A stretch of DNA of 64,000 nt. It comes from Betaproteobacteria bacterium. GTDB taxonomy: Bacteria > Pseudomonadota > Gammaproteobacteria > Burkholderiales > Casimicrobiaceae. Position numbers and translations under genes: made by a program. Of this stretch, positions 18,717-41,600 are shown in pieces. The stretch is taken from assembly GCA_016704895.1 (NCBI GenBank), contig JADIZG010000017.1, positions 1,061 to 65,060 on the forward strand, given 5' to 3'. Positions within the stretch are counted from its first letter, which is position 1, and each line of letters starts with the position of its first letter. The notes beneath the pieces are model-generated. The model saw only the letters and a program-made list of their open reading frames with translations. It did no database searches and had not been told where the DNA came from.

Positions 18717-18789
18717 CCGCAGCAAACGATTATAAAACAACTAGTTAGACTATTCGCGGCGACAGTGTCCCCCGCATGGCCTCCTCTGG

Positions 18790-18805: not shown

Positions 18806-18948
18806 GTCGGACTCCGCCGCACCACCGCGGCGCGGCGCGCGAGCGCGGCCCCTTTCCAGGGATCGTTCGTTCAGCCGCGACCGTCGCGTCGGGTGCATTT
18901 GCTAGACTGGACCGGATCGAGCGAAGCAATCCCCACGAGGACCGGCAG

Positions 18949-19191: not shown

Positions 19192-19299
19192 CGCCCAAGT
19201 GCGGGTTGGCCGCCGACCGGTCGTCGGCGCGCGAACGCCTCCGACCATCGGCACATGCGCGTCGTGGCCGACGCGTGCGGCAGCGGGCGGCTCAGGAAC

Positions 19300-20862: not shown

Positions 20863-20968
20863 TCGCGCTTCAGCGACGAATGAACATCGGCCGCACGGTC
20901 GAGCGCTCGCAGGATGGCGTCGGCAATGCGCACCGCCGCGGGCCTGCGCGCAGGCGCGCGCGCGCGCT

Positions 20969-21418
20969 CTAGAGCCAGTACTCGGGGTAGCGCCGGAACC
21001 GCGGGATGTTGTTCACGACGAGCGCCACCGCGAGCAGCACGAGCGGCGCCAGCGTGCAGGGCACGAGCACGTACAGGAAGCCCAGCGCGTGGACGTCGGG
21101 CGATCCGATCACCGCGATCAGCGCGGTCGCGCCGCCGGGCGGGTGCAGCGTGCGCGTGGCGTGCATCAGCGCGATCGCCGTGGCGACCGCCACGGATGCG
21201 GCGAGCCACGGCCACGGGTGCAGCAGCTTCCAGCACGCGACGCCGACGATCGCGGACAGCAGGTGTCCCGCGACGAGGTTGCGCGGCTGCGCCAGCGGGC
21301 TGCGCGGCGCGCCGTAGACCAGCACGGCGGACGCGCCGATCGAGCCGACCATCAGCGTGAGGTCGACCGTCAGGAACGCGGAACGCCGCGGGGCGATGCC
21401 GAGGAACGCGCCATCCAC
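20969..21418 (-). CDS. HPP-family membrane protein (N-terminus possibly truncated by indels in upstream homopolymers)
   Basis: Track ORF of 149 aa: GASAVLVYGAPRSPLAQPRN, HPPGGATAL. G8 (21421-21428) and C12 (21481-21492) lie immediately upstream. Confidence 0.7.
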   Translation of the reverse strand: MDGAFLGIAPRRSAFLTVDLTLMVGSIGASAVLVYGAPRSPLAQPRNLVAGHLLSAIVGVACWKLLHPWPWLAASVAVATAIALMHATRTLHPPGGATALIAVIGSPDVHALGFLYVLVPCTLAPLVLLAVALVVNNIPRFRRYPEYWL

Positions 21419-21742: not shown

Positions 21743-23300
21743 ATGTCGGTCGCCGTCGTACGCAGCCGCGCGCTCGCGGGTCTCGCGGCGCCGCCGGTCA
21801 GCGTCGAGGTGTACCTCGGCGGCGGGCTGCCGGCGGTCAACATCGTCGGGCTGCCCGATACCGAGGTCCGCGAGGCGCGCGACCGCGTGCGCGCCGCGCT
21901 GCAGAACGCGAACTTCGACTTCCCGGCGCGCAAGGTCACCGTCAACCTCGCGCCTGCCGACCTTGCCGAAGGAGAGCGGCCGCTTCGACCTGCCGATCGC
22001 GCTGGGCATCCTCGCGGCGAGCGGACAGATTCCCTCGGCGGCGCTCGATCGCCACGAGTTCGCGGGCGAGCTCGCGCTGACCGGCGAGCTCCGCGCGGTG
22101 CGCGGTGCGCTCGCGATGGTGCTCTCGGCGCGCCACGACGGGCGCGCGTTCGTGCTGCCGCGCGCGAGCGCGGCCGAGGCGGCGCTCGTTCCCGACGCGT
22201 CGGTGCATCCCGCGCGCACGCTGCTCGAGGTCTGTGCGCACCTGACCGGCGACGCGCCGCTGCCGCGGCTCGCGCCGATGGCGGTCGACGCGGGCCAGGC
22301 GAGCGCGCCGGATCTCGCCGAGGTCCGCGGCCAGCATCAGGCGAAGCGCGCGTTGGAGATCGCCGCGGCCGGCGGCCATTCGCTGCTGCTGTGCGGGCCG
22401 CCGGGCGCGGGCAAGTCGATGCTCGCGCAGCGCCTGCCCTCGCTCCTGCCGCCGCTGGACGAGGACGAGGCGCTGGAGGTCGCGGCGATCGCGTCGCTCG
22501 CGGGCCGCTTCGATCCGGCGCGCTGGCGCGTGCGTCCCTATCGCGCGCCGCATCACACGGCGAGCGCGGTCGCGATCGTCGGCGGCGGGAGCCACCCGCG
22601 CCCCGGCGAGATCTCGCTCGCGCACCGGGGCGTGCTGTTCCTCGACGAGCTGCCCGAGTGGGAGCGCCGCGTGCTCGAGGTGCTGCGCGAGCCGATCGAG
22701 TCGGGCGTCGTGCAGATCTCGCGCGCGGCGCGGCAGAGCGTGTTCCCGGCGCAGTTCCAGCTCGTCGCCGCGATGAATCCCTGTCCCTGCGGATGGCTCG
22801 GCCACGCGAGCGGGCGATGCCGCTGCTCGCCCGATCGCGTGCTGGCCTACCGCAGCCGCATCTCGGGGCCGCTCCTCGACCGCATCGACCTCGCGATCGA
22901 CGTGCCCGCGCTGCCGCCCGACGAGATTGCCATCGGGGGCGATGCGCCGGACGCGGAGCCGTCGTCGCGCGTCCGCGAGCGCGTCGCGGCGGCACGTGCC
23001 CGACAGCTCGCGCGGCAGGGCGTGTGCAACGCCGGACTCACGGTAGCGGACCTTCAGCGCCACGGCGTGCCGGACGAGCAGGCGCGCGCGCTCGCGACAC
23101 GCGCGATGTCGCGCTTCGGGCTCTCGGCGCGCGCCTACCACCGCATCCTGAAGGTCGCGCGGACGATCGCCGATCTCGCATCGGCCGACACGGTCGGGTC
23201 GGCGCACGTCGCCGAGGCGATCGGCTATCGGCGTTTCGACTCGGCGGAGTTCGCGCGGGACGCGTCGCCGGCCATGCCCGCCAGGCACGGCCCGCCGTGA
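21743..23300 (+). CDS. comM: Mg-chelatase-like ATPase ComM/YifB (one frameshift as given)
   Basis: The N-terminus is in track ORF 21743..23425 (MSVAVVRSRALAGLAAPPVSVEVYLGGGLPAVNIVGLPDTEVREARDRV..VNLAPADL). The rest is in 21357..23300 (KESGRFDLPIALGILAA...LLLCGPPGAGKSM...GVLFLDELPE). An apparent extra base lies near 21963. Confidence 0.85.
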
Positions 23301-23312: not shown

Positions 23313-25892
23313 TCAGGCGGGATGATCCGACGAACGAAGCGAGGCCTCCGCGTCGCGCTGCGTCACCGAGTCCAGCGCTGCGGCAACGCGCGATCCGAGC
23401 ACGCCGGCACGCCACGATTCGATGAGGTTGAGGTGATGGCCCGGGATGTCGACGACCGTAACGCCGCGCATCGCGTAGCGCCCCCAGCCGAGTTGCGGGT
23501 CGGCGATGGAAGGAGGGTCGACGGCACGGAAGACGGTGATCGCGCCGTCGAAAGGCGTGAGGTCGTGGTGGCCCAGCGCGCCCTGAAGCCCGGGCACGTA
23601 CCGCAGCATCACGCCGCGCCGCAGCGACGCGCGTCCCGGCACGACCGCACGCGCGACGGTGCGCAGGCGCATCGAGACGCGGACGCGCGCGCGGGCACCC
23701 AGGTGCGCGCGCGGCAGGCGCCAGAACGGAATCGTCAGGTCCAGGTAGCCGCCGTTCGCGTTCTGCGCCGCCGTGTCGATCACGCCGAGGAACGTGACCT
23801 CGGCGCGGCGGCCCGCGAGCGCGCGGGCGATCTCGACCGCGACCATGCCGCCGATCGAGTAGCCGATCAGCAGATAGGGTCCTTCCGGCTGCGCGGCGAG
23901 CATCGCGTCGACACAGTGCTTCGCCGTCTCGACGATCGATACGCGCTGCTCGAGGCGTATCAGCGAAAGGCCCGCGACCGGCCGGCGCGGGTCGAGATGT
24001 CGCAGCAGCGGCGCGTACCAGATCGGGTCGCCGACCATCCCCGGAACGCACCACAGGCGGGGCAAGTCCCCGCCGGCCCGGAGCGTCACTGCCTCGACCG
24101 GAACACCGTCGCTTGCGTCGATCGCCCGCGCGAGCGCTTCGACGGTCGGCGACGCGACGAGCGTCGCCGCGGGCAGCGCCTTGCCCTCCGTCCTGGCGAT
24201 GCGGGCGAGCAGTTCGACGGCGAGGAGCGAATCGCCGCCGAGCGCGAAGAAGTCGTCGTTCGCGCCGGCGTGCGGCGAACGAAGCACGTCCCGGAAGTGC
24301 GCGAGGATCCGGCGTTTCCTGTCGTTCGCCGGCGATGTCTCGCTGTGCGCGCCGGCGTCGGGCGGCACGAGCCGCGCGAGGGCGAAACGGTCGACCTTCC
24401 CGGTCGCGGTCGTCGGAAGCTCGTCGAGGAACACGAACGTCGACGGCAGCATGTAGGGCGGGAGGCGGTCGGCGAGCCTTCGGCGCAACGCGGGTCCATC
24501 GGCATCGGCAGGCGATGCCGCGGTCACGTAGGCGACGATCCGGTCGGCCTCCGCGCGCCGTCCGGGGACCGGCGCGAGCGCGGCGGCCCGCGCGACGCCT
24601 CTCGTGGCCGCCAGCGCGGCCTCGACCTCGGCCAGGTCGACCGAGTGGCCGCGGATCTTGACGCGGCTGCCGGTGCGGCCGAGGAAATGCAGCCGACCCT
24701 CGGCGTCGATGCGGCCCCGGTCGCCGCTCACGTAGCAGCGCCGCCCGGGATGCCGCGGATCGGGGGGAAGGAACTGCGCGTCCAGATCGGGGCGCTTCCA
24801 GTAGCCGGGACTCACGTGCGCGCTGCACACGACGATCGCACCTGCTTCGTCGACGGCGGCGTCGCTGCCGTCGTCGCGCCGGATCCGCACGTCGACGCCC
24901 GGCGTGGGGCGACCGAGCGGCAGGATGGCGTCCCTCGGCGGCGGGTCGCCGTGCGAGACGACGTGCTGGGCGATGCAGTCGGCCTCGGACGCGCCGAGCT
25001 GGTTGACCAGGATCGCGTCGTCACGCGTGTGCGCCGCGAAGAGCGCGGCGTCGCTCGTGTACGTGGCCTCCGCGCCGATGTCGATCACGCGCACGTGCCG
25101 GAGCTTCGCGCCCGGCGGCAGCGTCGCGCACAGTCCGCGGAAGACGGTCGGAAACGCGTGGATCGCGGTGATCCGCTCGCGATCCAGCCATTGCGCGAGT
25201 CCGTCGATGCCGTCGCGGCGCAGGTCGTACGCGCACACGGTGGCGCCGTTCAGCAGTCCTCCGTAGACGTGCATGTTGGCCGCCGCGAAGCTCATCGTCC
25301 AGAGGAGCGACAGCCGGTCGTCCTCGCCGAGCGAGAGTCGGCGCACGAAGGCGTCGGCGAAGAACATGACGCCGCGCTGGGTCTGCGTCACGCCCTTGGG
25401 CGAACCGGTGGACCCCGACGTGTAGAGGACGTACGCGAGCGCGTCCGGCGCGACCTCGGGCAACGCGAACGCCGGATCGGGCCGTTCGTCGCCGTCGATC
25501 TCGACGACCGCGCAGGTCGCGCCCGCGAGCGAACGGGCTCGCGCCGCGAGTGTCCGATCCGTCAGGAGGATGGCCGGGGCGCCATCGCGCAGGACGAAGC
25601 CCAGGCGCTCGTCGGGATCGCCGCCATCGAGCGGCACGTAGGCCCGGCCGCAACGCAGCGACGCGACCATCGCCTGGACGGTCGTCGTCTTGCGCGAGAA
25701 CAGCAACGCCGCGAAGCCGGGACGGCCGGCCGCCGCCGCCTCGCTGCGCGCGGCGATCGCGCGCGACGTCGACTCGAGCGTCGCGTAGTCGATCGCGCGG
25801 CCGTCCTCGACGAGCGCCGTCTTGTGCGGCAACCGCCGCGCGACGTCCTCGAACCGCGCCCCGAAGGCGCGCGCCTGTGATTCCTCCGCCAT
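23313..25892 (-). CDS. stand-alone NRPS-like adenylation-PCP-thioesterase protein (859 aa, frame intact)
   Basis: ATG 25892 within track ORF 23313..26441. A-domain cores: LYTSGSTGSPKGV, YVSGDRG, GRTGSRVKIRG, PTTATGKVDR. PCP: FFALGGDSLLAVEL. TE: GYSIGG. Confidence 0.85.
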   Translation of the reverse strand: MAEESQARAFGARFEDVARRLPHKTALVEDGRAIDYATLESTSRAIAARSEAAAAGRPGFAALLFSRKTTTVQAMVASLRCGRAYVPLDGGDPDERLGFVLRDGAPAILLTDRTLAARARSLAGATCAVVEIDGDERPDPAFALPEVAPDALAYVLYTSGSTGSPKGVTQTQRGVMFFADAFVRRLSLGEDDRLSLLWTMSFAAANMHVYGGLLNGATVCAYDLRRDGIDGLAQWLDRERITAIHAFPTVFRGLCATLPPGAKLRHVRVIDIGAEATYTSDAALFAAHTRDDAILVNQLGASEADCIAQHVVSHGDPPPRDAILPLGRPTPGVDVRIRRDDGSDAAVDEAGAIVVCSAHVSPGYWKRPDLDAQFLPPDPRHPGRRCYVSGDRGRIDAEGRLHFLGRTGSRVKIRGHSVDLAEVEAALAATRGVARAAALAPVPGRRAEADRIVAYVTAASPADADGPALRRRLADRLPPYMLPSTFVFLDELPTTATGKVDRFALARLVPPDAGAHSETSPANDRKRRILAHFRDVLRSPHAGANDDFFALGGDSLLAVELLARIARTEGKALPAATLVASPTVEALARAIDASDGVPVEAVTLRAGGDLPRLWCVPGMVGDPIWYAPLLRHLDPRRPVAGLSLIRLEQRVSIVETAKHCVDAMLAAQPEGPYLLIGYSIGGMVAVEIARALAGRRAEVTFLGVIDTAAQNANGGYLDLTIPFWRLPRAHLGARARVRVSMRLRTVARAVVPGRASLRRGVMLRYVPGLQGALGHHDLTPFDGAITVFRAVDPPSIADPQLGWGRYAMRGVTVVDIPGHHLNLIESWRAGVLGSRVAAALDSVTQRDAEASLRSSDHPA

Positions 25893-26070
25893 GGCCCCCC
25901 CGCCTTGGCCCCTCCCCGCGAGAATCATAGCGCTCGTCGCGTTCCCGTGCCGGGTCGCCGCTCCGGCAGGTGCGCCGGTTCGGGTCGTACGCGCTTCGCA
26001 CGATGGTAGGCTCACCGTCCATGCGCACGCCCCTCGTCCCCGGTGGGTTTCCCGCGCGCGTGCCCGGCCG

Positions 26071-26493
26071 ATGAACGCGGAGGCGGGGTCGCTCGCGGGC
26101 CTGTTCGCGTCGAGCTTCCTGTCGGCGACGCTGCTGCCCGGTAATTCCGAGATCGTGCTCGCGGCGGTCGTGGCCAACCTGCCGCACCTGTTCTGGACGG
26201 CGGTCGCCGTCGCGACGCTCGGCAACACCGTCGGCGGCATGACGTCGTACGCGCTGGGCCGGCTGATTCCCGCGGAAGGCGGACGAAAGCTCGCGCCGCG
26301 GGCGGTCGCGCTCGCGCAGCGGTACGGCATTCCGATGCTGCTGCTGTCCTGGGTGCCGGTCATCGGCGACGCGCTGTGCGTCGCGTCGGGATGGCTGCGC
26401 CAGGACTGGCGACTCGCGACGCTCGCGATCGCGGCGGGCAAGCTCGCGCGCTACGTCGTCGTCGCGGAGGGCGTGCGGCGGGTCGTGGGCTGA
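26071..26493 (+). CDS. YqaA-family (DedA-related) membrane protein
   Basis: ATG 26071 within track ORF 25822..26493. Motifs: LLPGNSEIVLAAVV..GNTVGGMTSYALGR..LLLSWVPVIGDALCVASGWLR. Confidence 0.7.
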   Translation: MNAEAGSLAGLFASSFLSATLLPGNSEIVLAAVVANLPHLFWTAVAVATLGNTVGGMTSYALGRLIPAEGGRKLAPRAVALAQRYGIPMLLLSWVPVIGDALCVASGWLRQDWRLATLAIAAGKLARYVVVAEGVRRVVG

Positions 26494-26816
26494 TGGATCG
26501 CCGGCGCCGGCGCATCGCCCTCGGACGACGTGCAGCGCCGTCGCCGGACGCGCTCGGCCGGAGCGGCCGCGACGCGGTGACGATGGACACGGCCCGAGGC
26601 ATTGTCTATCGTGCCTCGTCCGCCTCGCTGCGCGCCGTGCGCCGCCGACCTGGCGATGCGCGTGACGTCGACGACACCGCGTCCGACTGACACGCTTCCG
26701 GTGGCAGGTGCGGGGCATCGACCTTCCGGCAACGCGGGAGTCCGGCGATCCCGGTCGCGTGACGCGGGGTCGAAGGCTTGCTTCGGCCGTTCGCGCTACA
26801 TGGGATCGTTCGCCGC

Positions 26817-29800
26817 ATGAATCTCCAGGGACAGGGCAGCAACGGCGCCGCGAGAACGGCGCCGCCGTCGTTCGCCCAGCAGCGCCTGTGGCTGCTCGAC
26901 CGGCTGTATTCCGATGAGGCGATCTACAACGAGCCGCAGGCCTTTCGTCTCCGCGGGCCGCTCGACTGCGACGCGCTGAGGCGGGCAGTGAACGAGGTCG
27001 TTCGGCGCCACGAGGCGCTGCGCACGCGCTTCGCCGTCGATGACGCGCGGTTGGTGCAGGTGATCGCGCCGGCGCTCGACGTCCCTCTCGACGTCGAGGA
27101 CCTGCGCGCGCTGGCGGAGACGGAGCGCGACGCGGAGGCCAGGCGGATCGCGCAGGCCGAACGCCGCGCACGCTTCGATCTCGCGCGGGGACCGCTGCTG
27201 CGAGTACGCCTGCTGTGCCTGCGCGAAGGCGAGCACTGGCTGCTGCTGACCATGCACCACATCGCCACCGACGGGTGGTCGGTGGGCGTGCTGTGGCGCG
27301 AGCTCGCGGTGCTCTACGCCGCATTCCATGCCGGGCAGCCGTCGCCGCTGCCCGCGCTGGCCGCGCAGTACGCCGACTACGCGGTGCGCCAGCGCGAGGG
27401 GTTGAAGGGGGAAGCGCTGGAGAGGGCGCTCGCCTACTGGAAGAGGACGCTGGCAGGAATGCACGCGCTGGAGCTCCCGACCGACCGGCCGCGGCCGGCG
27501 ACGGCGAGCCATCGCGGCGACGTCGTGGGGTTCGAGATCGACGCCGATCTCACGCGCAGGTTGAAGGAGCTCGCCCGGCGCGAGCGGGCGACGCTGTTCA
27601 TGACGCTGCTCGCGGCCTTTCAGGTCCTGCTGCATCGCTACTCGGGCCAGGAGGACGTCGCCGTCGGCGTGCCGGTCGCCGGACGCAGCGCGCCCGAGGT
27701 CGAGCCGCTGATCGGGTTCTTCGTCAACATGCTGGTGATGCGCGGCGACCTGAGCGGGCAGCCCGGCTTCGACGCTTTGCTCGGCCGCGTTCGGCAGCAG
27801 GCGCTCGATGCGTACGAGCACCAGGAGCTGCCGTTCGAGCGGATCGTGATGGAGCTCGCGCCCGCCCGGGCGACGACGCGCAATCCGCTGTTCCAGGTGT
27901 CGTTCGCCCTGCACAACGCGGGGCAGGTGACGTTCCGCCTGCCGGGACTCGCCGTCGAGGAGATCGACGACCTCGGCGGCGACGACGTCAAGTTCGACCT
28001 GTCGCTCACGCTGACGGAAGCGTCGGCGTCCTGCGCGGCACCTTCCACTTCGCGACGGCGTTGTTCGATGCGGCCACGATCGGGCGCATGGCGGTCCAGC
28101 TCCGGACGCTGCTCTCGTCGATCGCGGCGGATCCGCGGCAGCGCATCGGGCGCCTGGCGCTGCAGAGTGCAGAGGAGCGCGAGCGGCGCCTGGCCGAGGG
28201 AATGCGCGCCCCGTCGCCCTATCCCGAGTCGACGCGGCTCGAGCGGCTGTTCGAGGCGCAGGCGGCCCTGCGGCCCGATGCGACAGCGGTGATCGGCGCG
28301 AGCGAATCGCTCACCTACCGCGATCTGGACCTGCGGGCCAACCGGCTCGCTCGCGAGCTCGACGCCTCCGGGTCCGGCGCGCCGCGCCGCGTGGGCATCT
28401 GTCTCGAGCGCGGACCGGACCTCGTCGTCGCGCTGCTCGCGACCCTCAAGGCCGGCGCGGCCTACGTGCCGCTCGACCCGGACCTTCCCGCCGAGCGCCT
28501 CTCCGCGATGCTCGCGGATGCGTCGGTCGCGCTGGTGCTCACCGACGAGCGCCTGTCGGCACGCCTGCCGGCCGGCGCCCATCGCGTCGTGTGCATCGAC
28601 CGGGACGCGCTGCGGATCGCGCAGCGTCCCGGCGGCGCCGTCGGCGCGGGCGACGATGCCGACGACCTCGCCTGCGTGATGTACACGTCGGCTCGTCCGG
28701 CCGGCCGAAGGGCGTGCTGATCGCGCACCGCGCGGTGTCCCGTCTCGTGTGCGGCAGCGACTACGTGAGGCTCGGTGCGGACGACGTGGTGGCGCACCTC
28801 TCGAATCCGGCGTTCGACGCGACGACGTTCGAGGTCTGGGGCGCACTGCTCAACGGTGCGGCCCTCGTCCCGATCGACAAGGCCACGGTGCTCGCGCCGC
28901 GAGCGCTCGCGACGGCGTTGCGCGCGAACGGCGTCACGACGCTGTTTCTCACGACCGCGTTGTTCAACGCGGTGGCGCGAGAGGTCCCCGACGCGTTCTC
29001 GGGCTGCCGCCAGGTCCTGTTCGGCGGCGAGGCGGTCGAGCCGCGCTGGGTCCGCGACGTGCTGAACGCGGGACCGCCGGGCCGGCTCCTGCACGTCTAC
29101 GGCCCGACCGAGGCGACGACGTTCGCGACCTGGCATCAAGTGCGCGCCGAGGACGCCGACCGGTCCACGATCCCGATCGGCCGGCCGATCGCCAACACCG
29201 AGGTGCTCATCCTCGACGCCGAGCGCGAGCCGGTTCCCGTCGGCGTTCCGGGCGAGATACACATCGGCGGACCCGGGCTGGCGCGCGGGTATCTCGGTCT
29301 GCCCGAACTCACCGCCGAGCGATTCGTGCCGCATCCGTTCGACGTCGATCCCGCCGCCCGTCTCTACCGGACCGGCGATCGCGCGCGCCACCGGGCCGAC
29401 GGCGCCATCGAGTTCCTCGGTCGCGTCGATCGCCAGGTGAAGATCCGCGGGCATCGCATCGAGCTCGCCGAGATCGAAGCTGCGCTCGCGCGGCTACCCT
29501 ACGTGCGCGAGGCGGTGGTGCTGGTGCGGGGCGCGACCAGCGACACGCGCCGGATCGTGGCGTGGGTCGTCCCGACCGACGCCGACGGGCCGCCCCCCGC
29601 GAACCTGCGCAAGGACCTGCGCCGGAGCCTTCCCGACTACATGCTGCCGGCGGCGACGGTGTGGTTGCCGGCGCTTCCGCTCAACGCGAACGGGAAGGTC
29701 GACCCTCTCGCGTTGCCGGAGCCCGGTGACACCGCCCGGCCTGCCGCGGGCGTCGCGGTCCCGCCGCGCGACATGTTCGAGGGCGTGCTGGTCCGCATCT

Positions 29801-30771
29801 GGGAGGACCTGCTCGGGATCACGGGCATCGGCGTGTTCGACCACTTCTTCGAGATCGGGGGCCATTCGCTGCTCGCCGCGCGCCTCGTCGACACGATCGA
29901 GCGCGAGACCGGGCTCGCGGTGCCGCTCACCGCGCTTTTCGCCGACGACACGATCGACGGACTGGCGAGGGCGCTGCGCGACGGGGCGCCCGACGCGAAC
30001 GCACCGATCGTCGCGATCAACGCGCAAGGCACGCGGCCGCCGTTCGTGTTCCTGCACGGGGACTTCCAGGCGGGCGGCTTCTACAGCCGCGCGCTGGCCC
30101 GCGCGCTCGGACCCGATCAGCCGACGCTGATCGTGCATCCGCACGGCCTCGTCGGCGACGCGATCCCCGAATCGATCGAGGCGATGGCCGCCGACCGCCT
30201 GCGTGCGCTGCAGGCCATCCGCCCGGTCGGGCCGTACGTGATCGGCGGGCACTGCAACGGCGCGCTGGTGGCGTTCGAGATGGCGCGCCAGCTCATCTCG
30301 CGCGGCGAGTCGGTCCCCGCGGTCGTGCTGATCGAGGCGCGCGCCGGCGCCCGGCGCCCGCTCGCGCGACGCCGGCGGTGCGTACGTCAAGTTCGACGCC
30401 GCGGGCCGCCCCGAGGCGCTCGTGCCACGCGACCGGGTCTCGGAAGCGGAGCTCCGCTATGCGCGCGCGATCGACCGTTACGAGGGCGGGCACTTCGACG
30501 GCCACCTGGTGATCGTCCAGGCGCAGGAATTGCACGATCCCGCTCCGGACGCCGGCTGGTCGCGCTTCGCGCGGTCCTGGGAAGGCCACATCGTGCCCGG
30601 CGGGCACGTGACGCTCATCACGCGACACCTCGCCGATCTGACGCGCACGGTCCGCGACGCCGTCACGCGCGCGCGGGTCTCCGTCCGACGGATCCGGCGC
30701 AGAGGCGGGGAAACGCCGACGAGCCAGCCGCGAACGCGCAGGCAGCGCAACGGGCAGGCCGCGGCGGCTGA
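26817..30771 (+). CDS. NRPS module C-A-PCP-TE(Cys) (3 frameshifts as given; true 3' end unresolved)
   Basis: ATG 26817. C domain MHHIATDGWS (track 26778..28292). A domain: LTYRDLDLRANRLA, VMYTS-(G)SSGRPKG, FDATTFE, YGPTEAT, GEIHIGGPGLARGY, YRTGDRA, GRVDRQVKIRG, NGKVD (tracks 27215..28720 and 28591..30771). PCP: FFEIGGHSLLA. TE-like: GGHCNG ... PGGHVTLI (continues in track 30422..31912). Frame switches lie near 28015, 28690 and 30350. Confidence 0.75.
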
Positions 30772-30901
30772 GGCGTCGCGGGTCTCGGCGCGGGCGTTCG
30801 TCCTGCTCCCGTATCATTCACTGTCGAACGAGTCTCCGCGGTACAACCGGCATCCGGCCCCGCCCTCCGAAGTCGACTCCGCCGGAAACCCCTGGTTGCC
30901 C

Positions 30902-33900
30902 ATGCCCAAGTCACGAATCGCCCCCTCTCCCTCGTTGCCGATCGCGGTCATCGGCATGGCGCTGCGCGTCCCCGGGGCGTCCTCCACGCAGCGGTTCTGG
31001 CGGAACCTCGTCGAAGGCCGCGACTGCCTCACCCGTCCCACTGCCGACGCGCTTCGCCAGGCGGGAATCGGACAGGAGAGGCTTTCCCATCCGGACTTCG
31101 TCCGGGCCTTGCCGATCCTCGACGACGTCGAGCATTTCGACGCCGACTTCTTCGACATGTCGGCATTGGAGGCCGAGGTCACCGACCCCGCGCAGCGCCT
31201 GTTCCTCGAGTGCGCCTGGGAAAGTCTCGAGAGCGCCGGCGTGGTGCCCGGGCGGTCGGGGCCCGTCACCGGCGTGTTCGGCGGCTACGAGGGAAACTAC
31301 CGGGAGAAGGTGCTCTCCGGCGTCATCGACCTGCGCCGCGACCCCGGATTGAACCTTCCGGTGCGCATCGGCAACGCGGTGGATTTCCTCACCACGCGGG
31401 TGTCCCACAAGCTCGATCTGACCGGACCCAGCTTCGGGGTGATGGCGGCCTGCGCGACCTCGCTGATGGCCGTCGACCTCGCGGTCCAGAGCCTGCGGCG
31501 CGGCGAATGCGAGGTTGCGCTGGCCGGGGGGGTCACGGTCAGCCTGCCCCGGCTCGACGGCTACGTCGCCGGAGTCGAGGGCATGCTCTCGGCATCGGGG
31601 CGCCTCCGGCCCTTCGACGCCGCGGCCGACGGCACGATCTTCGGGAGCGGCGTGGGCGTGGTCACGCTGCGTCCGCTCGCCGATGCGCTGGCGGCAGGCA
31701 ATCCGATCCACGGCGTGATCCTGGGGGTGGGCGCGAGCAACGACGGGAACCCGCCGGGCAAGGAGAGCTTCGTCGCGCCGAGCCCGAGGGTCAGATCGCT
31801 GCGATCGAGGCTGCGCTTCGCGATGCGGCGATCGCGCCGGAGACCCTCGGTTACGTGGAAGCCCACGGCACCGGCACGCGGCTCGGGGATCCCGTCGAGA
31901 TCGCGGCGCTGACCGACGTCTTTCGCCGGCACACGGACCGGACCGGCTATTGCTCGCTGGGATCGGTCAAGGCCAACGTCGGGCATCTGCGCTGCGGCGC
32001 GGGCGTCGCCAGCCTGATCAAGGCGTGCCTCGTCCTGTCCCACCGCACGCTGCCGCCGCTCGCGAACTTCGAGCGCGCCAATCCCAGGATCGACTTCGAG
32101 CGCAGCCCCTTCCACGTTCACACCGACGCGCGTCCGTGGCAGGCGGGAACGACCCCGCGGCGCGCGGCGGTGTCCTCGTTCGGCTTCGGAGGGTCCAACG
32201 TCCACGTCGTTCTGGAGGAACACCTGCCGGTGCCGTCCCGGCCCTCCGCGCGGCGTACCCACCTGCTCGTTGTGTCGGCTCGCACGGAGGCGGCGCTGGC
32301 GCGCAGGGTCGCGGAGCTTGGCGCGCACCTCGAAGAGCACCCGGCGCTTCCCGCTGCGGATGTCGCCCACACGCTGCAACGGGGACGGCGCGCGTTCCGC
32401 ACCGCGCCTGCTTCCTCGCCGACGGCGAGCGGATCCCGCCCCGGACGCTGGACGTCCGCCGTCCGCTGGCGTCCGGCGTCGCGCCCGCGCGCGCGGCGTC
32501 GCCGGTCTTCGTCTTCCCGGGCCAGGGGGCACAGCGGGTTGGCGCAGGGCGCGAGCTCTACGCGCGCGAGGCGCTGTTCCGGGATCTGGTCGACGAGTGT
32601 GCGGAAGCGCTCGCGCCCGAACTGGGCGTCGACGTTCGCGCGCTGCTGGGATACGTCGCGGGACGCGACGACGCGGACGCCGCCGAGATCCTGAGGCGCA
32701 CCGCCAACGCCCAGCCCTCGCTGTTCGTGGTCGGGTACGCGACCGCGCGCCTCTTCATGTCCTGGGGCTTGAGGCCCGCGGCGATGCTGGGGCACTCGCT
32801 GGGCGAGCTCGTCGCTGCCTGTCTCGCCGACGTCTTCTCGCTCGCCGACGGCTTGAAGCTGGTGGCCGCCCGTGCCCGCCTGATGCAGGAGTGCGAGGCG
32901 GGATCCATGGCTGCGGTCCTCCTGCCGGAAGGCGCCCTCGCGTCCCGGCTTCCGCCATCCCTCGAGATCGCCGCCGTCAACGCTCCATCGATCTCGGTAG
33001 TGTCGGGTCCCGTCGAGGCCGTCGCGCGGTTCTGCGAGTCGCTGGAACGGGAGGGTGTCGGGACGCAGCGCATCGCGACGTCGCACGCGTTCCACTCGCG
33101 GATGATGGAACCCGCGCTGCCCGGGTTCGCGCGCGTGCTCGCCGGCGTCGCGCTCCACGCCCCCCGGATCCCGGTGATCTCGAACGCCACCGGCGTTCCC
33201 CTTCGTCCCGACCAGGCGACGGATCCGCGCTACTGGGTCGACCACGTCCGGCACCCGGTCCGCTTCTCGGCCGGCGTCGAGCATCTCCTTTCGCTCGACA
33301 ACCCGGCCTTCGTCGACATGGGACCCGGTTCGACGTTGAGCGACCTGATCCGCCGTCACGATCCGGCGGCCCGCGTCTTTCCTGTCCTCGCGCCTTCGGC
33401 GTCCGGCAACGACGAGGCAACGATCGCCCGCGCCGCGCTCGGCGGCCTCTGGTGCGCGGGAGTGGAGGTCGACTGGGGCGCGGCCGAGGCCGGCGAACGG
33501 CGCCAGTTGCTGTCGCTGCCGACCTATCCGTTCCAGCGCACGCGCCATTGGCGCGACGACGAATCGGGCCCGCCTGCCGATCCCCGGAAGATGCTGTACG
33601 AGCGGGGCTTCCGCGAATCGCCCCTCGCGGCCGACGCGACGCTCGACGTCGCGCGCCCGTGGGTGATCCTCGGCGCGGACCGGGGGCTGGCTGGCGCGCT
33701 ACGCGAACGGCTCGAAGCCGCGGGAGCGCGCGTCACGACGCTCGTCCCCGGCGACGCGTTCGCGTGCGCGGGCGAGAACCGGTTCGACGTCCGGCCGGAT
33801 TCGCGGGAGGACCTGGGCGCGGCCCTCGCGGCCAGCGTTGCGACCGGAGGCGGGCGCGCCATTCGCGTGCTCCACCTGGGATCGGTGACAGGGTCGTCGG

Positions 33901-36900
33901 GTCCGCACAACAGCGCGCAGGCCTTCGAGGATGCGGCCCGGACCGGGTTTTTCTCCCTCGTGGCGCTGACCCAGGCCGCCTACGATCGGAATCTCGACGA
34001 CGGACTCGAGGTCACGGTGGTCGCCGACGGATTGGCGCAGCTGGAAGGCGAGACGAACGTGCGCTTCGCCGAAAAGGCAGCGGTGCTGGGCGCCTGCCGC
34101 GACATCCCGCTGGAGTTGCCGGGCGTACGCGTGCGGGTCGTCGACGTTCCATGCTTCGACGCGGCTGGGGTCCCCGCCTGGTTGCCCGACGCCCTGCTCC
34201 GCGAGGCGGGCGCGGACGATGCGCCTGCCCTGGCTTGCCTCCGGCCCGCAGCCCGGTACGTCGAGCAGCTCTATGCGCTGCCGGCGATTCCGGAGTCGAG
34301 CCCCAGATTGCGCGAGGGCGGCGTGGTGATGATCACCGGCGGGACCGGCGGCCTGGGACTGCTGTTCGCGGGGGCGCTCTTCGACCTGTGTCGTGCGCGT
34401 CTCGCGCTCACCGCGCGATGGACGCCTCCACCGGAGGAAACGTGGCCCGAGCGGGCGCGGCAGGACGACAGGATCGGCCGGTCCCTTGCCGGCGTACTCG
34501 ACCTCAAGGCCCGCGGAGCGGAAGTCCTGATCGTGACGGCCGACGTGTCCGATCGCGACCAGGTGGCGCGTGCACTCGACGCGACCCGAGCCCGCTACGG
34601 CGGCCTCCACGGCGTCGTCCACGCGGCAGGGGCGCTGCAGCCGACCCCCGTGATCGACAAGACGCGGGAGGGCGCTGCGCGCGTGTTCGGCCCCAAGGTC
34701 CACGGCGCGTTCCACCTCGACGAGCTGCTCGCCGACGAGCCCCTCGACGTGTTCCTGCACGTCTCGTCGCAGGCGTCCCAGTTCCCCGGTCCCGGGCAGG
34801 TCGACTACGCGGCCGCCAACGCGGTGCTCGACGTCCTCGCGCAGAATCGCGCCGTGCGTCACGGCGGCCTCTCGTGCGCCACGGGGTGGGGCGCGTGGCA
34901 GGAAGCGGGCCTCGCGGCGGATCGCGTTCGGCAGACGCTGCAAGCCGACGCCGCACGCGCGGTTGCACGCGGCAAGCGCCCGCCGGACGAGGACTCGACG
35001 CCCATCGATCATCCGATCTTCCGGTCCCGGGCGCGCGCTCCGGGCGGCGACCTCGTGTACCGGGGTGTGCTCCGTTCGGGTTTCTGGCTGGTGGACGACC
35101 ATCTGCTCGACGGCAGGCCGCTCCTCAGCGGCACGACGACGCTGCAACTTGCCCGGACCGCGTTCCTCGACCACTCGACCGACGTCGGCGCGGTCGAGCT
35201 CTCCCGCGTTGCGTTCCTGCGCCCGCTCTTCGTGGCGGAGGGCGGGATGGAGATCGAGCTTCGCTTCAGTCGCTCCCGCGACGACGAGGCCTTCACGCTG
35301 CGCTCGCGCGCCGCGACCTCGCAGGGCGAGTGGCAGGTCAATTCGACTGGGTACGTTCGCAGGACTGCGGCGTCCCCCCGGCCGGTCCCGCGCGTTCCGC
35401 CGGTTCACCGATGGCAGGAGGCCGCCACTCGCAGGGTCTTTGGCGGCGCCCGCCTGACCGGCGGCCCTCGGTGGCAATGGCCGCGCCTCGAGCTCGAGCA
35501 CGAGGGTCGCGTCTGGGATCGGATGACGCTTCCGACGGCGTTCGCCGCCGACGTCGTGGCGTTCGATCTGCACCCGGCGCTCCTGGACGTTGCCACGATG
35601 GGCGCCGCGCGAACGCTGCGGACCGAGTCGGTGCCCCACACCTACGATTGCATCCGCATCTTCGCGGGGCTCATCCCGGACGTGCTCGCGCTTGCCGTCG
35701 AGCGCGATGCGGGGACGTCCACCGCCACGGACATCACGATCACCGACCTCGACGGCAGGACGCTGCTCGAGATCGAGGGGTACGTGATGCGTCCGATCGA
35801 GGGCTCGAGCCTCGCGCAGGAGCCGGGAGCGCGCAGTCCCGGCGACGCGCCCTCCGACCCCGGCTCCGGTCCGCGCAGGGTGGTCGTCGGCGAGGTCGGC
35901 AGCCTGGATTCGCTGCGCGTCGAAGCGTTCGCGCCGCGGAACCCGGGGCATGGCGAGGTTCGGATCGACGTCCACGCCACCGGACTCAACTTCCGCGACG
36001 TCCTCTCGGCGCTCGGCCAGATGCCGGGCGTCGGGTCCGGCCCTCCGGTGCCCGGCGGCGAGTGCAGCGGCATCGTCCGCGCCGTGGGACCCGGGGTGCG
36101 CCACCTCGCGCCCGGAGACGCAGTCGTGGCCATCGCCCGCGGATGCCTGGGCACCGACGTCACCACTGCGGCCCACGCCGTGGCGCGCATGCCCGGGAAC
36201 CTCGACTTCAACCGCGCCGCCGGACTGCCCATCGTCTTCCTCACCGCGCAGTACGCACTCGAGACGCTCGCGCACGTCGCGCGCGGGGAACGGGTCCTGA
36301 TCCACGCGGCGGCCGGCGGCGTGGGCCTGGCGGCCATCCAGATCGCCAAGTTCCTCGGCGCAGAGATCTACGCCACTGCCGGTCACCCGGAAAAGCGCGA
36401 ATACCTGCACTCGCTCGGCATCGAGCACGTCTTCGACTCGCGTTCGCTCAGCTTCGTCGACGGCATCCGCGACGCCACTGCCGGGCAGGGCGTCGACGTC
36501 GTGCTCAACTCGCTCGCCGGCGAGTTCATCCCCGCGAGCCTGGGGCTGCTGCGGCCGCAGGGGCGCTTCATCGAGATCGGCAAGCGCGACCTGCTGGCTG
36601 ACACGCCGCTGCACCTCGCGCCGTTCCTGCGCAACCTCACGTTCTCGGCGTTCGACCTGGGCCAGATCGTCGATGCGCAGCATCCGATGCTGCCGGCCAT
36701 GTTCGACGCGCTGCTCGATCGCTTCGCGCGCGGGGAGCTTCGCGCACTGCCTACCGGCGTGGTGCCGTTCGCGCGTGCCGACGAGGGCTTCCGTCGCATG
36801 GCGCGCGCGCAGCACATCGGCAAGATCGTGTTCGAGGTGCGGGCGGACACGAGCGAGCGCGGCGCCGTCGCCCGCGCGTTCGAGGAGACCTACGGGACGG

Positions 36901-37334
36901 GCGTTTCCGTCGAATGGGGGCTCGACGTGTTCCGCCGCATCCTCACGTGGAGCGAGGCGCCGGCCTACCTGCTGGCGATGGGCTCGGCCGTCGAGGGTGT
37001 GGGCACCTACGCGACGCGGCCCCGGAACGTGGCCGGCGGGGGGCGGGGCCGGGATTCCCTGCAGACCGCGTACCGGGCGCCGGAAACGGCCGTCGAGAAG
37101 GCGCTCGCGCTGTTGTGGGAGAAGACGCTGGGCATCCAGCCGATCGGCATCGACGACGACTTCATCGAGCTCGGCGGGGACTCGATCGAGGCGATCCAGG
37201 TCCAGCACGCCATCCACCGCGATTTCGACCTGCGCGTCAAGAACACGGAGTTCCTGGCCGAGCCCACGATCGCGGCGCTCGCGGCGCTGATCGCTGCTCG
37301 TGCCGAGGGCGACGCTGCGACGAGGCCTGCATGA
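30902..37334 (+). CDS. type I polyketide synthase, single fully reducing module KS-AT-KR-DH-ER-ACP (2 frameshifts as given)
   Basis: ATG 30902 gives MPKSRIAPSPSLPIAVIGMALRVPGAS. KS: AACATSL, EAHGTGT, NVGH (tracks 30422..31912 and 31210..32694). AT: FPGQGAQ, GHSLGE, AFHS. KR: ITGGTGGLG .. YAAANA. DH: HPIF .. LVDDHLLDGRPLLSG. ER: LNFRDV .. AAGGVGLAA. ACP: LGGDSIE (track 31950..37334). Switches lie near 31787 and 32400. Confidence 0.8.
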
Positions 37335-37410
37335 GCCTGGCGATGCAGAGGCGATCGCGAAAACGCTGCGCATGCCTGCCGCCACGGCCGGCAGGCCAGG
37401 GCGGAGGGCG

Positions 37411-38168
37411 ATGAAGGCGCCTGACGACGCCTGCGCCACGCTTCTGCACGCTCGTCGCAGCCGGGACGGGTGCGCCCCTCTACCTCGTGCCGTCGGTCGG
37501 CTCCACGCCACTGTCGCTGATGCGGCTGGCGAGGGCGATCGATCCCCGGCGCCCGGTCCGTTCGTTCGCCTACGCCGGCCTCGAGGACGACGCGGCGCCC
37601 CACCGCACGCTTGAGTCCATGGCGGCAGCCTGCGTCGAGGAACTGCTCGCGGCGTCGCCGGAGGGTCCGTACCTGCTCGGCGGGCATTGCCTCGGCGGAA
37701 CGGTCGCGCTCGAGATCGCGCTGCAACTGGAGGCGCGAGGTCGCAACGTGGCGCGACTCGTGGTCCTCGATTCCATCGCGCCGTTGATCGAGGGCACGCA
37801 TCGGGCGTCCGTCGGCCCGGACGCCTTCGGGTCGCGAGCCGCAGCCGCCGAGAGCAGCTTTCGCCGGGCGATCGAGGAGATCGTCAGCCGCACGATCGGC
37901 GCCTATCCGGTCATCGGCCCCGATGCGTTCCGCCGGTTGGGCGCCCTGCTCAAGCTGCACATCGAGGCGGGCGTCGCCTATCGCGCCCGCCCGCTCCGTG
38001 CGCGAACCTGCGTGCTGCGCACCGCGGGGTGTGGCGACGCCGTGCTGGACGGGTGGTCGAGCGTCGCGCCGGGTCGTCCCGGGCGACACGTTCTCGATGC
38101 TGCGCTTGCCGCACGTCGAGACCGTCGGGCGCATCCTGGGTCGGCTGCTCGTGGATGCCGTGCAATGA
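37411..38168 (+). CDS. stand-alone type II-like thioesterase with Cys at the nucleophile position (2 frameshifts as given)
   Basis: ATG 37411 (MKAPDDA..), then the frame of track ORF 37487 (APLYLVPSVGSTPLSLMRLA..PYLLGGHCLGGTVALEIA), then track 37923..38168 ([31 protein letters not shown], stop 38168). It is a paralogue of the TE in the NRPS. Confidence 0.6.
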
Positions 38169-38649
38169 CGTCACCAGCGACGCCCGTTCCCGGAGAGCCT
38201 CCGAACGCGCCAGGCGACGCGACCGACGGCCGCGACACGTCGTCCCCGCCTCCGCCGGCGCCGCGGGCGCTCCCCACCGCGTACGTCGCGCCGCGCAACG
38301 AGCTCGAGGCGCAACTGGCGCAGCTTTGGGAGAGCGTGCTGGCGGTCGTGCCGATCGGGATGGACGACGACTTCTTCGACCTGGGCGGCGAGTCGCTCCA
38401 CGCGTTCGCGTTGATCTCGCGCGTGCAGCGCGACCACGGCGTGACGCTGTCGCCCAGGGACCTGTTCGCGTGCTCCAGCGTGGGGGCGATGGCGGTCGTG
38501 GTCGGCGAGCGCCGGCAGCGCGCAGACCCCGCGGCGCGGCGGCGCGCGGCGCGCCGGCCGCAGGTCGCGCCGCGCGCCGCGCGAAGCCTCACGCGCGTCA
38601 AGGACTTGCCGCGGCATGCGTGCGGCCCCTCTGTTGCGCTGCGGTATGA
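38165..38649 (+). CDS. stand-alone peptidyl/acyl carrier protein (3' end uncertain)
   Basis: ATG 38165 overlaps the TE stop (ATGA). [46 protein letters not shown] is the carrier-protein core. As given this frame has no stop until 42514. The only nearby stop (38647-38649) is in another frame. Confidence 0.5.
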
Positions 38650-38660
38650 TCGGTGCCGTC

Positions 38661-41600
38661 ATGAATGCCGTGGCCGAACCGGTCGTTTCCGTCGGTGCCG
38701 ATGCAGGCGTCGACGCGCCGCGCCTGCGCGAGATCCCGTACAACTACACGTCGTTCTCGGACCGCGAGATCGTCATCCGGCTGCTGGGCGCGGACGAATG
38801 GACGCTGCTCGACGAGCTGCGCGGCGAGCGGCGCACCGGGCGCTCGGCGCGGATGCTCTTCGAGGTGCTGGGCGACATCTGGGTCGTCGAGCGCAATCCG
38901 TACCTGCAGGACGACCTCACCGACAACCCGAAGCGACAGGCGCTGATCGTCGAGGCGCTGCGCCACCGGATCGCCGAGATCGAGAAGCGGCGGCAGGCGC
39001 AGTCGGGCGCCGACCCCGACCGCGACGCGAAGGTCGCGCGCCTGGTCGCGTCGGCATCGCGCGCGATCGACCGCTTCGAGGCGTCGTTCCCCGAAACGGC
39101 CGCCCTGCGCAAGCGCACGCGACGCGTGCTCGGCCGCCACACGCACCGCGACAACATCGCGTTCGACGGGCTCGCGCGCGTCTCGCACGTGACCGACGCG
39201 ACCGACTGGCGCGTCGAGTACCCGTTCGTCGTGCTCTACCCCGACACCGAGGACGAGGTGCGGGGGCTGGTGGAAGGCTGCATCGAGCTCGGGCTGACGA
39301 TCGTGCCGCGCGGCGGCGGCACCGGTTACACCGGCGGCGCCTGCCCGCTCACGCCGCGCGCGGCCGTGATCAACACCGAGAAGCTCGAGCGGCTCTCGGG
39401 AGTCGAGCGCATCGCGATTCCCGGACGCGCGGAACCGGTGACGACGATCGACGCGGGCGCGGGCGTGGTCACCCGGCGCGTGATGGAAGCGGCGGAACGC
39501 GAGGGCCTCGTGTTCGCGGTGGATCCGACGTCGGCGGACGCGTCGTGCATCGGCGGCAACGTCGCGATGAACGCGGGCGGCAAGAAGGCGGTGCTGTGGG
39601 GCACGGCGGTCGACAACCTGCTGTCGTGGCGGATGGTGACGCCCGACGCCGAGTGGATCGAGGTCGAGCGGCAGGACCACAACCTCGGCAAGATCCACGA
39701 TGCGCCGGTCGCGACGTTCGCGGTGCGCCGGCTCGCGCGCGACGGCACGTCGGTGATCTCGACCGAGACGATTCGCGTGCCGGGCGCGCGCTTCCGCAAG
39801 GAAGGGCTCGGCAAGGACGTGACCGACAAGTTCCTCGAGGGGCTGCCGGGCGTCCAGAAGGAAGGCTGCGACGGGATCATCACGAGCGCGCGCTTCGTGC
39901 TGCACCGGATGCCGCCCGCGGTCCGCACCGTGTGCCTGGAGTTCTTCGGCCAGGTGCGCGACAGCGTGCCGTCGATCGTCGAGATCAAGCGCTACCTCGA
40001 CCAGGGCCCGGCGGCGCGATCCTCGCGGGCCTCGAGCACCTCGACGAGCGCTACGTGAAGGCGGTCGGCTACGCGACCAAGGCGAAGCGCCACGGCCGGC
40101 CGAAGATGGTGCTGATCGGCGACATCGTCGGCGAGTCCGACGACGCGGTCGCCCGCGCCGCGAGCGAGGTCGTGCGCATGGCGGCCGCCCGGGGCGCCGA
40201 GGGCTTCGTCGCGGTGTCGGCCGAGAGCCGCAGGAAATTCTGGCTCGACCGCGCGCGCACGGCCGCGATCGCGAAGCACACGAACGCGTTCAAGATCAAC
40301 GAGGACGTCGTCATCCCGCTCGAGCGGCTCGGCGACTATTCCGACGGCGTCGAGCGCATCAACATCGAGCTGTCGATCGGCAACAAGCTGAAGCTCGCCG
40401 ACGCGCTCGCGGCGCTGTTCGCGCGCCCCGATGCGCTGCACCTGTGGGGTCCGGACGACGAAGTGCGTCCGCCGCAGGAGCAGGTCGACGAGCGCTTCGA
40501 GGAGGCGCGCGGGATCGTCGCCGCGGTGCGCTCGCGCTGGCAGGACCTGCTCGACCGGATCGACGAGACGTTCCCGGCCCTGCAGAGCCACGCGAGCGTC
40601 GTGTCGTGGAAGGCCGAGCTGCGCGCGCCGCTCGAGGACCTGTTCGACGGCCGGGCGTTCGCGCCCGTGCTCGCGGCGATCGGCGAGACGCACGCGCGCG
40701 TGCTGCGGAGCCGCGTCTTCGTCGCGCTGCACATGCACGCGGGCGACGGCAACGTGCACACGAACCTGCCGGTCAACTCGGACGACTACGGGATGCTGCG
40801 AGAGGCGACCGCGGCGGTCTCGCGCATCATGGCGCTCGCGAGGAGCCTCGACGGCGTCGTGTCGGGCGAGCACGGCATCGGCATCACCAAGCTCGAGTAC
40901 CTGACCGACGCGGAGCTCGCGCCGTTCGCCGACTACAAGCGGCGCGTCGACCCGCACGGGCGCTTCAACGCCGGCAAGCTGCTGCGCGATCCCGCGTGTC
41001 CGGCCGACCTCACGAACGCGTACACGCCGTCGTTCTCGCTGATCGGCGCCGAGAGCCTGATCCTCGAGGCGTCCGAGATCGGGAGGATCGCCGACTCGGT
41101 CAAGGACTGCCTGCGCTGCGGCAAGTGCAAGCCGGTGTGCTCGACGCACGTGCCGCGCGCGAACCTGCTCTACAGCCCGCGCAACAAGATCCTGGCGACG
41201 TCGCTGCTGATCGAGGCGTTCCTCTACGAGGAGCAGACGCGGCGCGGCGTCTCGCTGCGCCATTTCGACGAGTTCTCGGACGTGGCCGACCACTGCACCG
41301 TGTGCCACAAGTGCGAGGCGCCCTGCCCGGTCGACATCGACTTCGGCGACGTGTCGATCGCGATGCGCAACCTGCTGCGGCGCGAGGGCAAGCGCAAGTT
41401 CAGCCCCGGCACCGCGGCGGCGATGGCGTTCCTGACCGTGACCGACCCGTCGACGATCAAGGCGATGCGCGCCGGCATGATCGGGCTCGGCTACCGGGCG
41501 CAGCGCCTCGGCTACCGGATCGCGAAGCGCCTGGGGCTCGCGGGCATCCAGGCGAAGCGCCCGCCGGCGACCGTCGGCAAGCCGTCGCTCAAGGCGCAGG

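Follow-up and report, generated by a model that had tools for sequence, protein, structure and literature searches.

The hybrid nonribosomal peptide synthetase (NRPS) and polyketide synthase (PKS) genes that lie between comM and a DUF3683/FAD/Fe-S dehydrogenase gene in a Betaproteobacteria bacterium (assembly GCA_016704895.1, contig JADIZG010000017.1, positions 1,061 to 65,060) raise a simple question: which of the genes work together, and what do they make? The 64,000-nucleotide stretch that was analysed, referred to here as the window, belongs to a lineage of Burkholderiales that is uncultured and occurs in wastewater and soil. The locus is a real NRPS-PKS cluster without a known product; clusters of this class are common, and what sets it apart is its unusual pair of thioesterases (TEs). 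Its core consists of an NRPS termination module with condensation (C), adenylation (A), peptidyl carrier protein (PCP) and TE domains, a single-module fully reducing type I PKS, a free TE-fold protein termed TE2 and a free carrier protein of the PCP type. The favoured answer, to which slightly less than an even chance is given, is that the PKS feeds the NRPS, resulting in an N-acyl-isoleucine-type lipoamino acid.

The window has a G+C content of about 72%, so spurious frames dominate any plain list of open reading frames (ORFs); coding frames were assigned instead from the third-position GC and a simple frame-state segmentation, and domains were taken from Pfam scans of stop-to-stop pieces. 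From 23328 to about 25900 the coding signal is on the minus strand, and from there up to the dehydrogenase on the plus strand; between comM and the dehydrogenase its frame changes far outnumber the genes. A preliminary description of this DNA had listed six genes here, and the Pfam results bear out these genes and their domains, together with the comM stop at 23300 and the dehydrogenase start at 38661 (Table 1). Adjacent and co-oriented genes encode C, A and PCP domains alongside ketosynthase (KS), acyltransferase (AT) and acyl carrier protein (ACP) domains, as expected of a hybrid type I NRPS-PKS. The frame-corrected proteins contain the motifs HHIATDG (C), YTSGSSGRPKG (A), GGHSL (PCP), AACATS, HGTGT and NVGH (KS), GHSLGE and HAFH (AT) and GGDS (ACP). 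The block contains no phosphopantetheinyl transferase, MbtH, exporter or regulator, as had been noted before, and the same is true of the intact orthologous loci L162 and L164.

Which of the six genes form the cluster was addressed with a comparative set of loci, assembled from a PKS scan of species-representative genomes and a comM scan of metagenome contigs. Two of these loci, L107 and L115, are empty sites that read comM-VTT-dehydrogenase, where the NRPS and the PKS are absent and there is no space for a cluster. The small VTT/YqaA-type membrane protein gene is therefore part of the chromosomal backbone rather than of the cluster, and in L162 it directly adjoins comM. It follows from the empty sites that the four-gene core was inserted between the VTT gene and the DUF3683 dehydrogenase. 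The order NRPS-PKS-TE2-PCP is found directly upstream of the same dehydrogenase in the Burkholderiales metagenome-assembled genome (MAG) L011, the Casimicrobiaceae MAGs L016 and L001, L162 (GCA_030834885.1), L164, L170 and L174, and L002 and L082 read comM-VTT-NRPS-PKS. In all, the cluster occupies this locus in at least 10 related contigs and is not private to this genome; across at least 10 contigs the four genes keep the same order and strand with short gaps, at 58-94% identity.

The content of the interval between comM and the dehydrogenase varies between contigs. The gene for the stand-alone A-PCP-TE protein lies between comM and the VTT gene in the window, in L164, in L011 (in two copies) and in L165-167, with a version in L170 that has no TE; it is missing from L162, L002 and L082, and relatives of it stand alone in unrelated contexts in L168 and L171. 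It is thus a separate and variable insertion. As with a genomic island, the core is absent from the same site in relatives (L107 and L115), and the other signatures of an island are not seen: GC is 0.70-0.74 throughout and equal to that of the flanks, the borders have no direct repeats (the only repeats being those of domain motifs), and there are no mobility genes among the six genes. The interval is a variable spot and not a classic island. The earlier view of a hybrid NRPS-PKS placed between two core genes stands, and the 15.3 kb between them is not one six-gene island. The lesson is that island borders should be drawn from empty sites and not from the nearest recognisable core genes.

The abundance of frame changes raises the possibility that the frameshifts are real and that this strain carries an array of decaying pseudogenes. 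At least 8 frame breaks fall in a span of 12 kb, and the carrier gene is without its stop codon, reading GCA at 38522-38524 where the L164 orthologue has TAG. The junctions were placed by mapping the proteins of the intact syntenic locus L011 onto the window (Table 1), and a 7.2-kb wastewater-metagenome contig with 94.8% DNA identity to the window, L161, gives the changes at base level. In comparison to L161 the window is without one base each at 28027, 28692, 31783 and 32398 and has 2-nt gaps at 30341, 30670 and 30718. At three of the four 1-nt sites (28692, 31783 and 32398) the missing base sits in a G or C run; for example, TCGGGCTCG is read as TCGGCTCG and GAGCCCCGAG as GAGCCCGAG. The change at 28027 counts as a run loss only on the assumption of an original GGC codon, which is what P0002 and P0003 have; L161 has GAC there. 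In most of the breaks a G/C run of 3-4 is short of a single base.

The same type of break is found in housekeeping genes, which argues against decay. An alignment of DNA with three orthologues shows one C missing from a C run near 40007 in the dehydrogenase gene. comM has an extra T of 1 nt near 21963, inside a conserved motif (window GACCTTGCC versus GACC-TGCC in L002), and the comM protein of L002 aligns with the window in one frame over 21743-21964 and in another over 21963-23243. gcvT (47638-49178) is split as well, with positions 1-55 of the GCV_T profile in ORF 47638-48153 and positions 57-255 in ORF 47904-49175. Counting these, some twelve frame breaks are spread over 21.7 to 48.3 kb of the window. 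Moreover, none of the pieces contains an in-frame stop codon, there are no large deletions, and the third-position GC stays high and the codon bias unchanged on both sides of every junction. Intact orthologues of the NRPS (P0001, 94%), TE2 (P0121, 93%) and the A-PCP-TE protein (P0192, 93%) are present in other wastewater assemblies. Given the G/C-run losses, the affected housekeeping genes and these intact orthologues, the breaks can almost certainly be put down to assembly errors of the kind that a homopolymer-sensitive technology produces, and the cluster genes are probably intact in the organism; decay is considered highly improbable. The earlier proviso that the cluster would be dead if the frameshifts were real does not apply, as they behave as sequence errors, and the more general lesson is that errors of assembly can make a cluster look pseudogenised.

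Several apparent fusions disappear once the frames are corrected. As read, there is no stop codon between the NRPS and the PKS. After the residues DAVTR, the tail of the NRPS continues in the third frame to a TGA at 30771, in agreement with the tails of P0001 and P0002. This makes the NRPS and the PKS separate genes, which is also their arrangement in L011, L002 and L162, and a single NRPS-PKS fusion was rejected. A TE-carrier fusion protein was likewise rejected as an artefact of missing bases. A 1699-aa ORF (37415-42514) runs stop-free through TE2, the carrier and the dehydrogenase, covering the start of the dehydrogenase out of frame and its C-terminal part in frame; it could pass for a giant fusion gene, and is an artefact of the high GC content and missing bases. 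The end previously given for the block, 38649, is the stop of an off-frame ORF and not the end of the carrier gene.

The NRPS is the part of the system for which a substrate can be predicted most directly. The specificity code of its A domain, DAFFLGVTFK, predicts isoleucine and is kept in the orthologues. It was read by alignment to the GrsA phenylalanine domain, a reference validated by its giving the known code DAWTIAAICK. The identical code has been reported from domains of cyanopeptolin synthetase that incorporate Ile or Val and from Ile domains of aeruginosin/suomilide-type synthetases (PMC2533009, PMC13122637). When ranked against PDB entries the C domain is LCL-type, with far stronger matches to Txo2 (6e-102) and TycC (1e-76) than to RzmA (2e-18) and CDA-C1 (8e-17). 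It had been described as a starter C domain; it is N-terminal by position only, and in its sequence it is an LCL-type domain and not one of the lipo-initiation type. The TE domain has a cysteine in the nucleophile motif (GHCNG), a glutamate at +27 and a GGH histidine, all of which are conserved in the orthologues, and among solved structures it matches the AB3403 TE best (9e-12), with GWCFG as the aligned motif there. A relative of the NRPS with 52% identity, P0042 in L169 (8027-15271), has a C-C-A-PCP-TE arrangement and is paired with a divergently transcribed free A-PCP gene, with no PKS.

The PKS adds KR, DH and ER (ketoreductase, dehydratase and enoylreductase) domains to its KS, AT and ACP, and the AT is predicted to be malonyl-specific from its HAFH motif. 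In the PDB ranking the KS and KR resemble hybrid and trans-AT systems as well as ClbC and ClbK of the colibactin pathway. A literature search for the exact domain string KS-AT-KR-DH-ER-ACP gave no match. A PUFA (polyunsaturated fatty acid)-synthase-like reading, based on the position of the KR ahead of the DH, was dropped, the same order being present in ClbB and in many hybrid NRPS-PKS modules. In other lineages the PKS and TE2 occur without any C-A module: in L173, which has these two genes only, in L003 and L172, where a PCP is added, and in L006 and L013, where a PCP-TE didomain protein accompanies them; a carrier besides the ACP of the PKS is present in all variants except L173. The PKS is therefore self-sufficient and needs no priming by an NRPS, which argues for iterative chain building, and from these variants the enzyme is probably iterative. 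In L013, from a sponge symbiont, the PCP-TE/PKS/TE2 trio (3193-20159) is set amid genes for B12-radical SAM, Rieske oxygenase, JmjC/cupin and PhyH dioxygenase proteins, a context which suggests that the same core there leads to a product with more tailoring.

TE2 is the constant partner of the PKS across the variants. It has the nucleophile motif GHCLG and an aspartate at +27, and its canonical histidine is replaced by threonine (PGDTFSML), such that it lacks the Ser/Cys-Asp-His triad of a canonical hydrolytic type II thioesterase. The family yields 71 matches in 5.8 billion proteins, all metagenomic. An alignment of the close members (at least 47% identity), A1, shows GHC[LF]GG and an aspartate at +27 in all of them and PGDTFS in place of GDH/GGH, with no invariant histidine; the member in L013 is 32% identical and has the same motifs. 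The AlphaFold model of TE2 (pLDDT 83) has a type I TE fold, with the TEs of AB3403, Vlm2 and tautomycetin as the top folds. The preliminary description had reported all the catalytic core motifs it checked as present. This is not quite right, as both TEs downstream of the NRPS PCP use a cysteine nucleophile (GHCNG and GHCLG), and the free one is without the canonical histidine. The ATG of the carrier gene overlaps the stop codon of TE2 (ATGA), so that on sequence grounds the free PCP appears to be translationally coupled to TE2; its motif is LGGESL and its best NCBIfam matches are the PCP regions of NRPSs.

Together these features can be arranged into a line that runs from the PKS to the NRPS. 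The PKS would use malonyl-CoA to assemble a saturated acyl chain on the ACP that it carries itself, TE2 would take the chain on its cysteine and hand it to the free PCP, and the LCL-type C domain would use this acyl-PCP as the donor to acylate isoleucine on the module's own PCP. The Cys-Glu-His TE would then free the product through hydrolysis or cyclisation. This direction is preferred because C-A-PCP-TE is a termination architecture that is fed by an independent carrier in EntF and AB3403, because the PKS-TE2 pair occurs without any C-A module, and because most variants hold a second carrier and carrier-to-carrier transfer has precedent. The lipo-amino-acid-like product guessed at earlier remains the best-supported product class.

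A number of observations weigh against this direction. The C domain is LCL-type and not of the lipo-initiation type that is usual for fatty-acyl donors. The absence of a second carrier in L173 implies that TE2 is not merely a shuttle, and TE2, without a general base, may be inactive. Others come from the likeness of the locus to ClbB of the colibactin pathway, in which an NRPS feeds a PKS and the domain order is C-A-T-KS-AT-KR-DH-ER-T (PMC5490422). The gene order NRPS-PKS-TE2-PCP and the domain order here match it, including the unusual KR-DH-ER arrangement; the comparison with ClbB covered the order of genes and domains. Many PKS relatives (33-52% identity) sit directly after a C-A-PCP module, and L009, with a KS 65% identical to the one here, has a C-A-PCP without a TE upstream of its PKS.

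These points are the basis of a colinear alternative in which the NRPS feeds the PKS as in ClbB. A donor, on either the A-PCP-TE protein or the free PCP, would be condensed with isoleucine, and the KS would take the (acyl-)Ile and add one malonate. Full reduction by the KR, DH and ER would give an (acyl-)4-amino-5-methylheptanoyl unit, to be off-loaded by TE2 and the free PCP. Such a line would also account for the matches of the KS to ClbC (5e-114) and ClbK, for the many relatives of the PKS module that start within about 400 nt after a C-A-PCP module, and for the LCL-type C domain, which fits a PCP-bound donor; roughly half of the loci have an A-PCP(-TE) gene along with the cluster. Against it stand the conserved and catalytically complete TE (Cys, Glu and His) that follows the NRPS PCP and marks a termination module, and the PKS-TE2 units that exist without an NRPS. 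Release would also be unexplained, as the sole TE downstream of the PKS has no catalytic histidine, and the A-PCP-TE gene is not found in L162, L002 and L082. KS identity is uninformative as a test of direction and fails to separate the two types of relative, since the NRPS-fed and PKS-fed ones are both 47-52% identical. On balance the colinear alternative is thought unlikely.

ClbB also differs from the system here in other respects. Two proteins take the place of one, the NRPS ending with its TE at the TGA at 30771 and the PKS starting at 30902, and the A code is for Ile where that of ClbB is for Ala. No ClbN-like prodrug module, ClbP peptidase or other clb-like genes are present in the window or the orthologous loci.

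It is also conceivable that the neighbours are functionally separate, with the PKS and TE2 making a fatty-acid-like lipid, the NRPS making an unrelated small Ile peptide with the free PCP, the A-PCP-TE protein or both, and adjacency reflecting a shared insertion hotspot. The PKS-TE2 pair alone in L173, the pairing of P0042 with an A-PCP protein in the absence of a PKS, the variable content of the interval and the occurrence of the A-PCP-TE family on its own would all be consistent with this. Separate functions do not readily account for four genes that stay together in the same order and on the same strand in so many contigs at such a range of identity; moreover, the N-terminal C domain needs a donor, and the only consistently co-located sources are the ACP of the PKS and the free PCP. 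This explanation is judged to be less likely still than the colinear one.

Returning to the PKS-to-NRPS line, its closest counterparts in architecture are AB3403 of Acinetobacter baumannii and EntF, which share the C-A-PCP-TE arrangement; a free carrier is encoded in the operon here as there. An independent carrier protein supplies the donor to both modules, and for AB3403 the product has itself not been defined (PMC10510592). Among solved structures the TE of AB3403 is closest to the NRPS TE in sequence and to the TE2 model in fold, and it too has a cysteine in the GxCxG position. In contrast to these systems, the donor here would come from a type I PKS and not from an adenylating enzyme that stands alone; the A-PCP-TE protein, which has the one further A domain at the locus, contains its own PCP. 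The A code for Ile and the second, His-less TE are further differences, and the relation between the C domains is only distant (4e-37).

For TE2, the nearest parallels are CmaE, SyrC and the type II TE LgnA, small free enzymes that perform carrier-to-carrier transfer; LgnA has a TE fold and moves the chain between T domains via an acyl-enzyme intermediate (PMC8748450). By description TE2 is likewise a small free-standing enzyme in an NRPS context, with a TE fold, an active-site nucleophile and an adjacent free carrier. Unlike LgnA, which uses Ser77, it has a cysteine and no canonical histidine, and unlike all three it is always partnered with a reducing PKS. A broader and rather doubtful proposal is that TE2 represents a new TE-fold family (Cys nucleophile, His replaced by Thr, about 60 close members in the same 5.8 billion proteins, all uncultured) that would be dedicated to a stand-alone iterative PKS, relaying its acyl chains or serving it in off-loading. 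PKS-TE2(-PCP) would then be a portable lipid-building cassette that is plugged into lineage-specific release or condensation modules, here an Ile termination module, giving a new lipoamino acid.

The cysteine in the NRPS TE brings to mind the Cys-dependent NRPS thioesterases ObiF, which forms a beta-lactone, and SulM, which forms a beta-lactam; enzymes of this type are marked by a catalytic Asp at 'position II' (PMC11298585). The GxCxG motif is shared, with an Asn after the Cys (HCN here, QCN in SulM; PMC6668435, PMC11298585). The differences are that the acidic residue here, a Glu, lies at the EntF/AB3403 position (+27) instead of 'position II', that the A domain is not one for beta-hydroxy or beta-amino acids, that a sulfotransferase is absent and that the ObiF1 C domain is only a weak match (1e-18). 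Apart from the Cys, the features of SulM and ObiF are thus missing, and a beta-lactam or beta-lactone product was rejected.

The statement that the cluster resembles no characterised pathway was supported. NCBIfam scans of all the proteins returned generic NRPS/PKS models only, far below their cut-offs, and no named pathway; the homologues come solely from metagenomes or MAGs and have generic names. The best PKS match among GTDB species representatives is 71%, a tblastn search of a plasmid collection with the PKS gave nothing over 38% identity, and neither the species-representative genomes nor the plasmid collection held close relatives that were cultured or plasmid-borne.

If the PKS-to-NRPS line is correct, uncultured wastewater and soil Burkholderiales make a new N-acyl-isoleucine-type metabolite with a compact four-gene line that is small enough for synthesis and expression. 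Its combination of Cys TE, free carrier and Cys TE-fold protein lacking the His could also reveal how a polyketide chain is handed over between carriers. Orphan NRPS-PKS clusters are very common, so that this one is of no more than moderate interest as long as it lacks a product.

Table 1. Coordinates of the genes, domains and frame junctions in the window
Feature	Coordinates	Strand	Motif, match or detail
comM (Mg-chelatase-like), left backbone flank	21743-23300	+	stop at 23300
A-PCP-TE, stand-alone NRPS-like, 859 aa, intact	23313-25892	-	Pfam AMP-binding 1.6e-50, PP-binding, Thioesterase
VTT/DedA-YqaA-like small membrane protein, 140 aa	26071-26493	+	Pfam VTT_dom 1.2e-5, under gathering score
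NRPS, C-A-PCP-TE, ~1320 aa frame-corrected	26817-30771	+	Pfam Condensation 2.3e-99; split AMP-binding, PP-binding, Thioesterase
NRPS C domain	26853-28184		MHHIATDG
NRPS A domain	28250-29698		code DAFFLGVTFK
NRPS PCP	29788-29977		GGHSL
NRPS TE	30088-~30680		GHCNG, Glu at +27, GGH
NRPS frame junctions	28022/28025, ~28690, 30336-30377		L011 proteins
PKS, KS-AT-KR-DH-ER-ACP, single-module fully reducing type I, 2144 aa frame-corrected	30902-37334	+	Pfam; KS split
PKS KS	30939-32074		AACATS, HGTGT, NVGH
PKS AT	32505-33354		GHSLGE, HAFH (malonyl)
PKS KR	34320-34905		Rossmann and YAAAN motifs
PKS DH	35010-35808		HPALLD
PKS ER	35949-36831		HAAAGGVG
PKS ACP	37104-37293		GGDS
PKS frame junctions	~31750, 32397/32400		L011 proteins
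TE2, free TE-fold protein, ~265 aa	37372-38168	+	Pfam Thioesterase; P0121 match
TE2 frame junctions	~37440, ~38075		P0121 (93% identical) matches window in three frames
Free PCP-type carrier protein	38165-~38524	+	Pfam PP-binding
DUF3683/FAD/Fe-S dehydrogenase, right backbone flank	38661-42514	+	L011 protein match
Dehydrogenase frame junction	40007-40010		L011 protein matches in two frames, 90-93% identical

The separate A-PCP-TE gene, which starts with an ATG at 25892 and has the same length as its orthologue P0192, encodes an A domain with the code AAMH..QCIK. The Asp at Stachelhaus position 235 is replaced by Ala, which suggests that the substrate is not an alpha-amino acid, and the TE domain has the motif GYSIG together with a His (PGHH). 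In architecture it is like the NRPS-like A-T-TE enzymes, which have the same three domains and an A domain without Asp235. The family of these proteins, of about 850 aa, is large and entirely uncharacterised, with 609 matches at E <= 1e-30 and often several copies per genome in Casimicrobiaceae MAGs.

Other observations concern the intergenic region of the cluster and the remainder of the window. The short motif GTATCATTC is common to the NRPS-PKS intergenic regions of the window (30813-30821) and L011 (~8290-8300) and may be an internal promoter or regulatory element. Upstream of comM, the region 9126-13892 has a coding signal that is weak or atypical in comparison to the rest of the window and includes a 755-aa ORF (10633-12897, minus strand) with no Pfam match. 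Two Cys-rich and apparently secreted proteins are encoded at 13893-15608 and 19303-21012 (minus strand), the second with a DUF5648 domain; a DUF5648 protein is also found near comM in L164. An Xre/MbcA/ParS-type antitoxin gene followed by a RES-domain toxin gene (59911-61456) forms a toxin-antitoxin pair between a ybeD-like gene and lipB. Finally, a protein with a BTAD (SARP-like) transcriptional activator domain is encoded at 63193-64000, at a distance of 25 kb from the cluster, and is cut off where the window ends.

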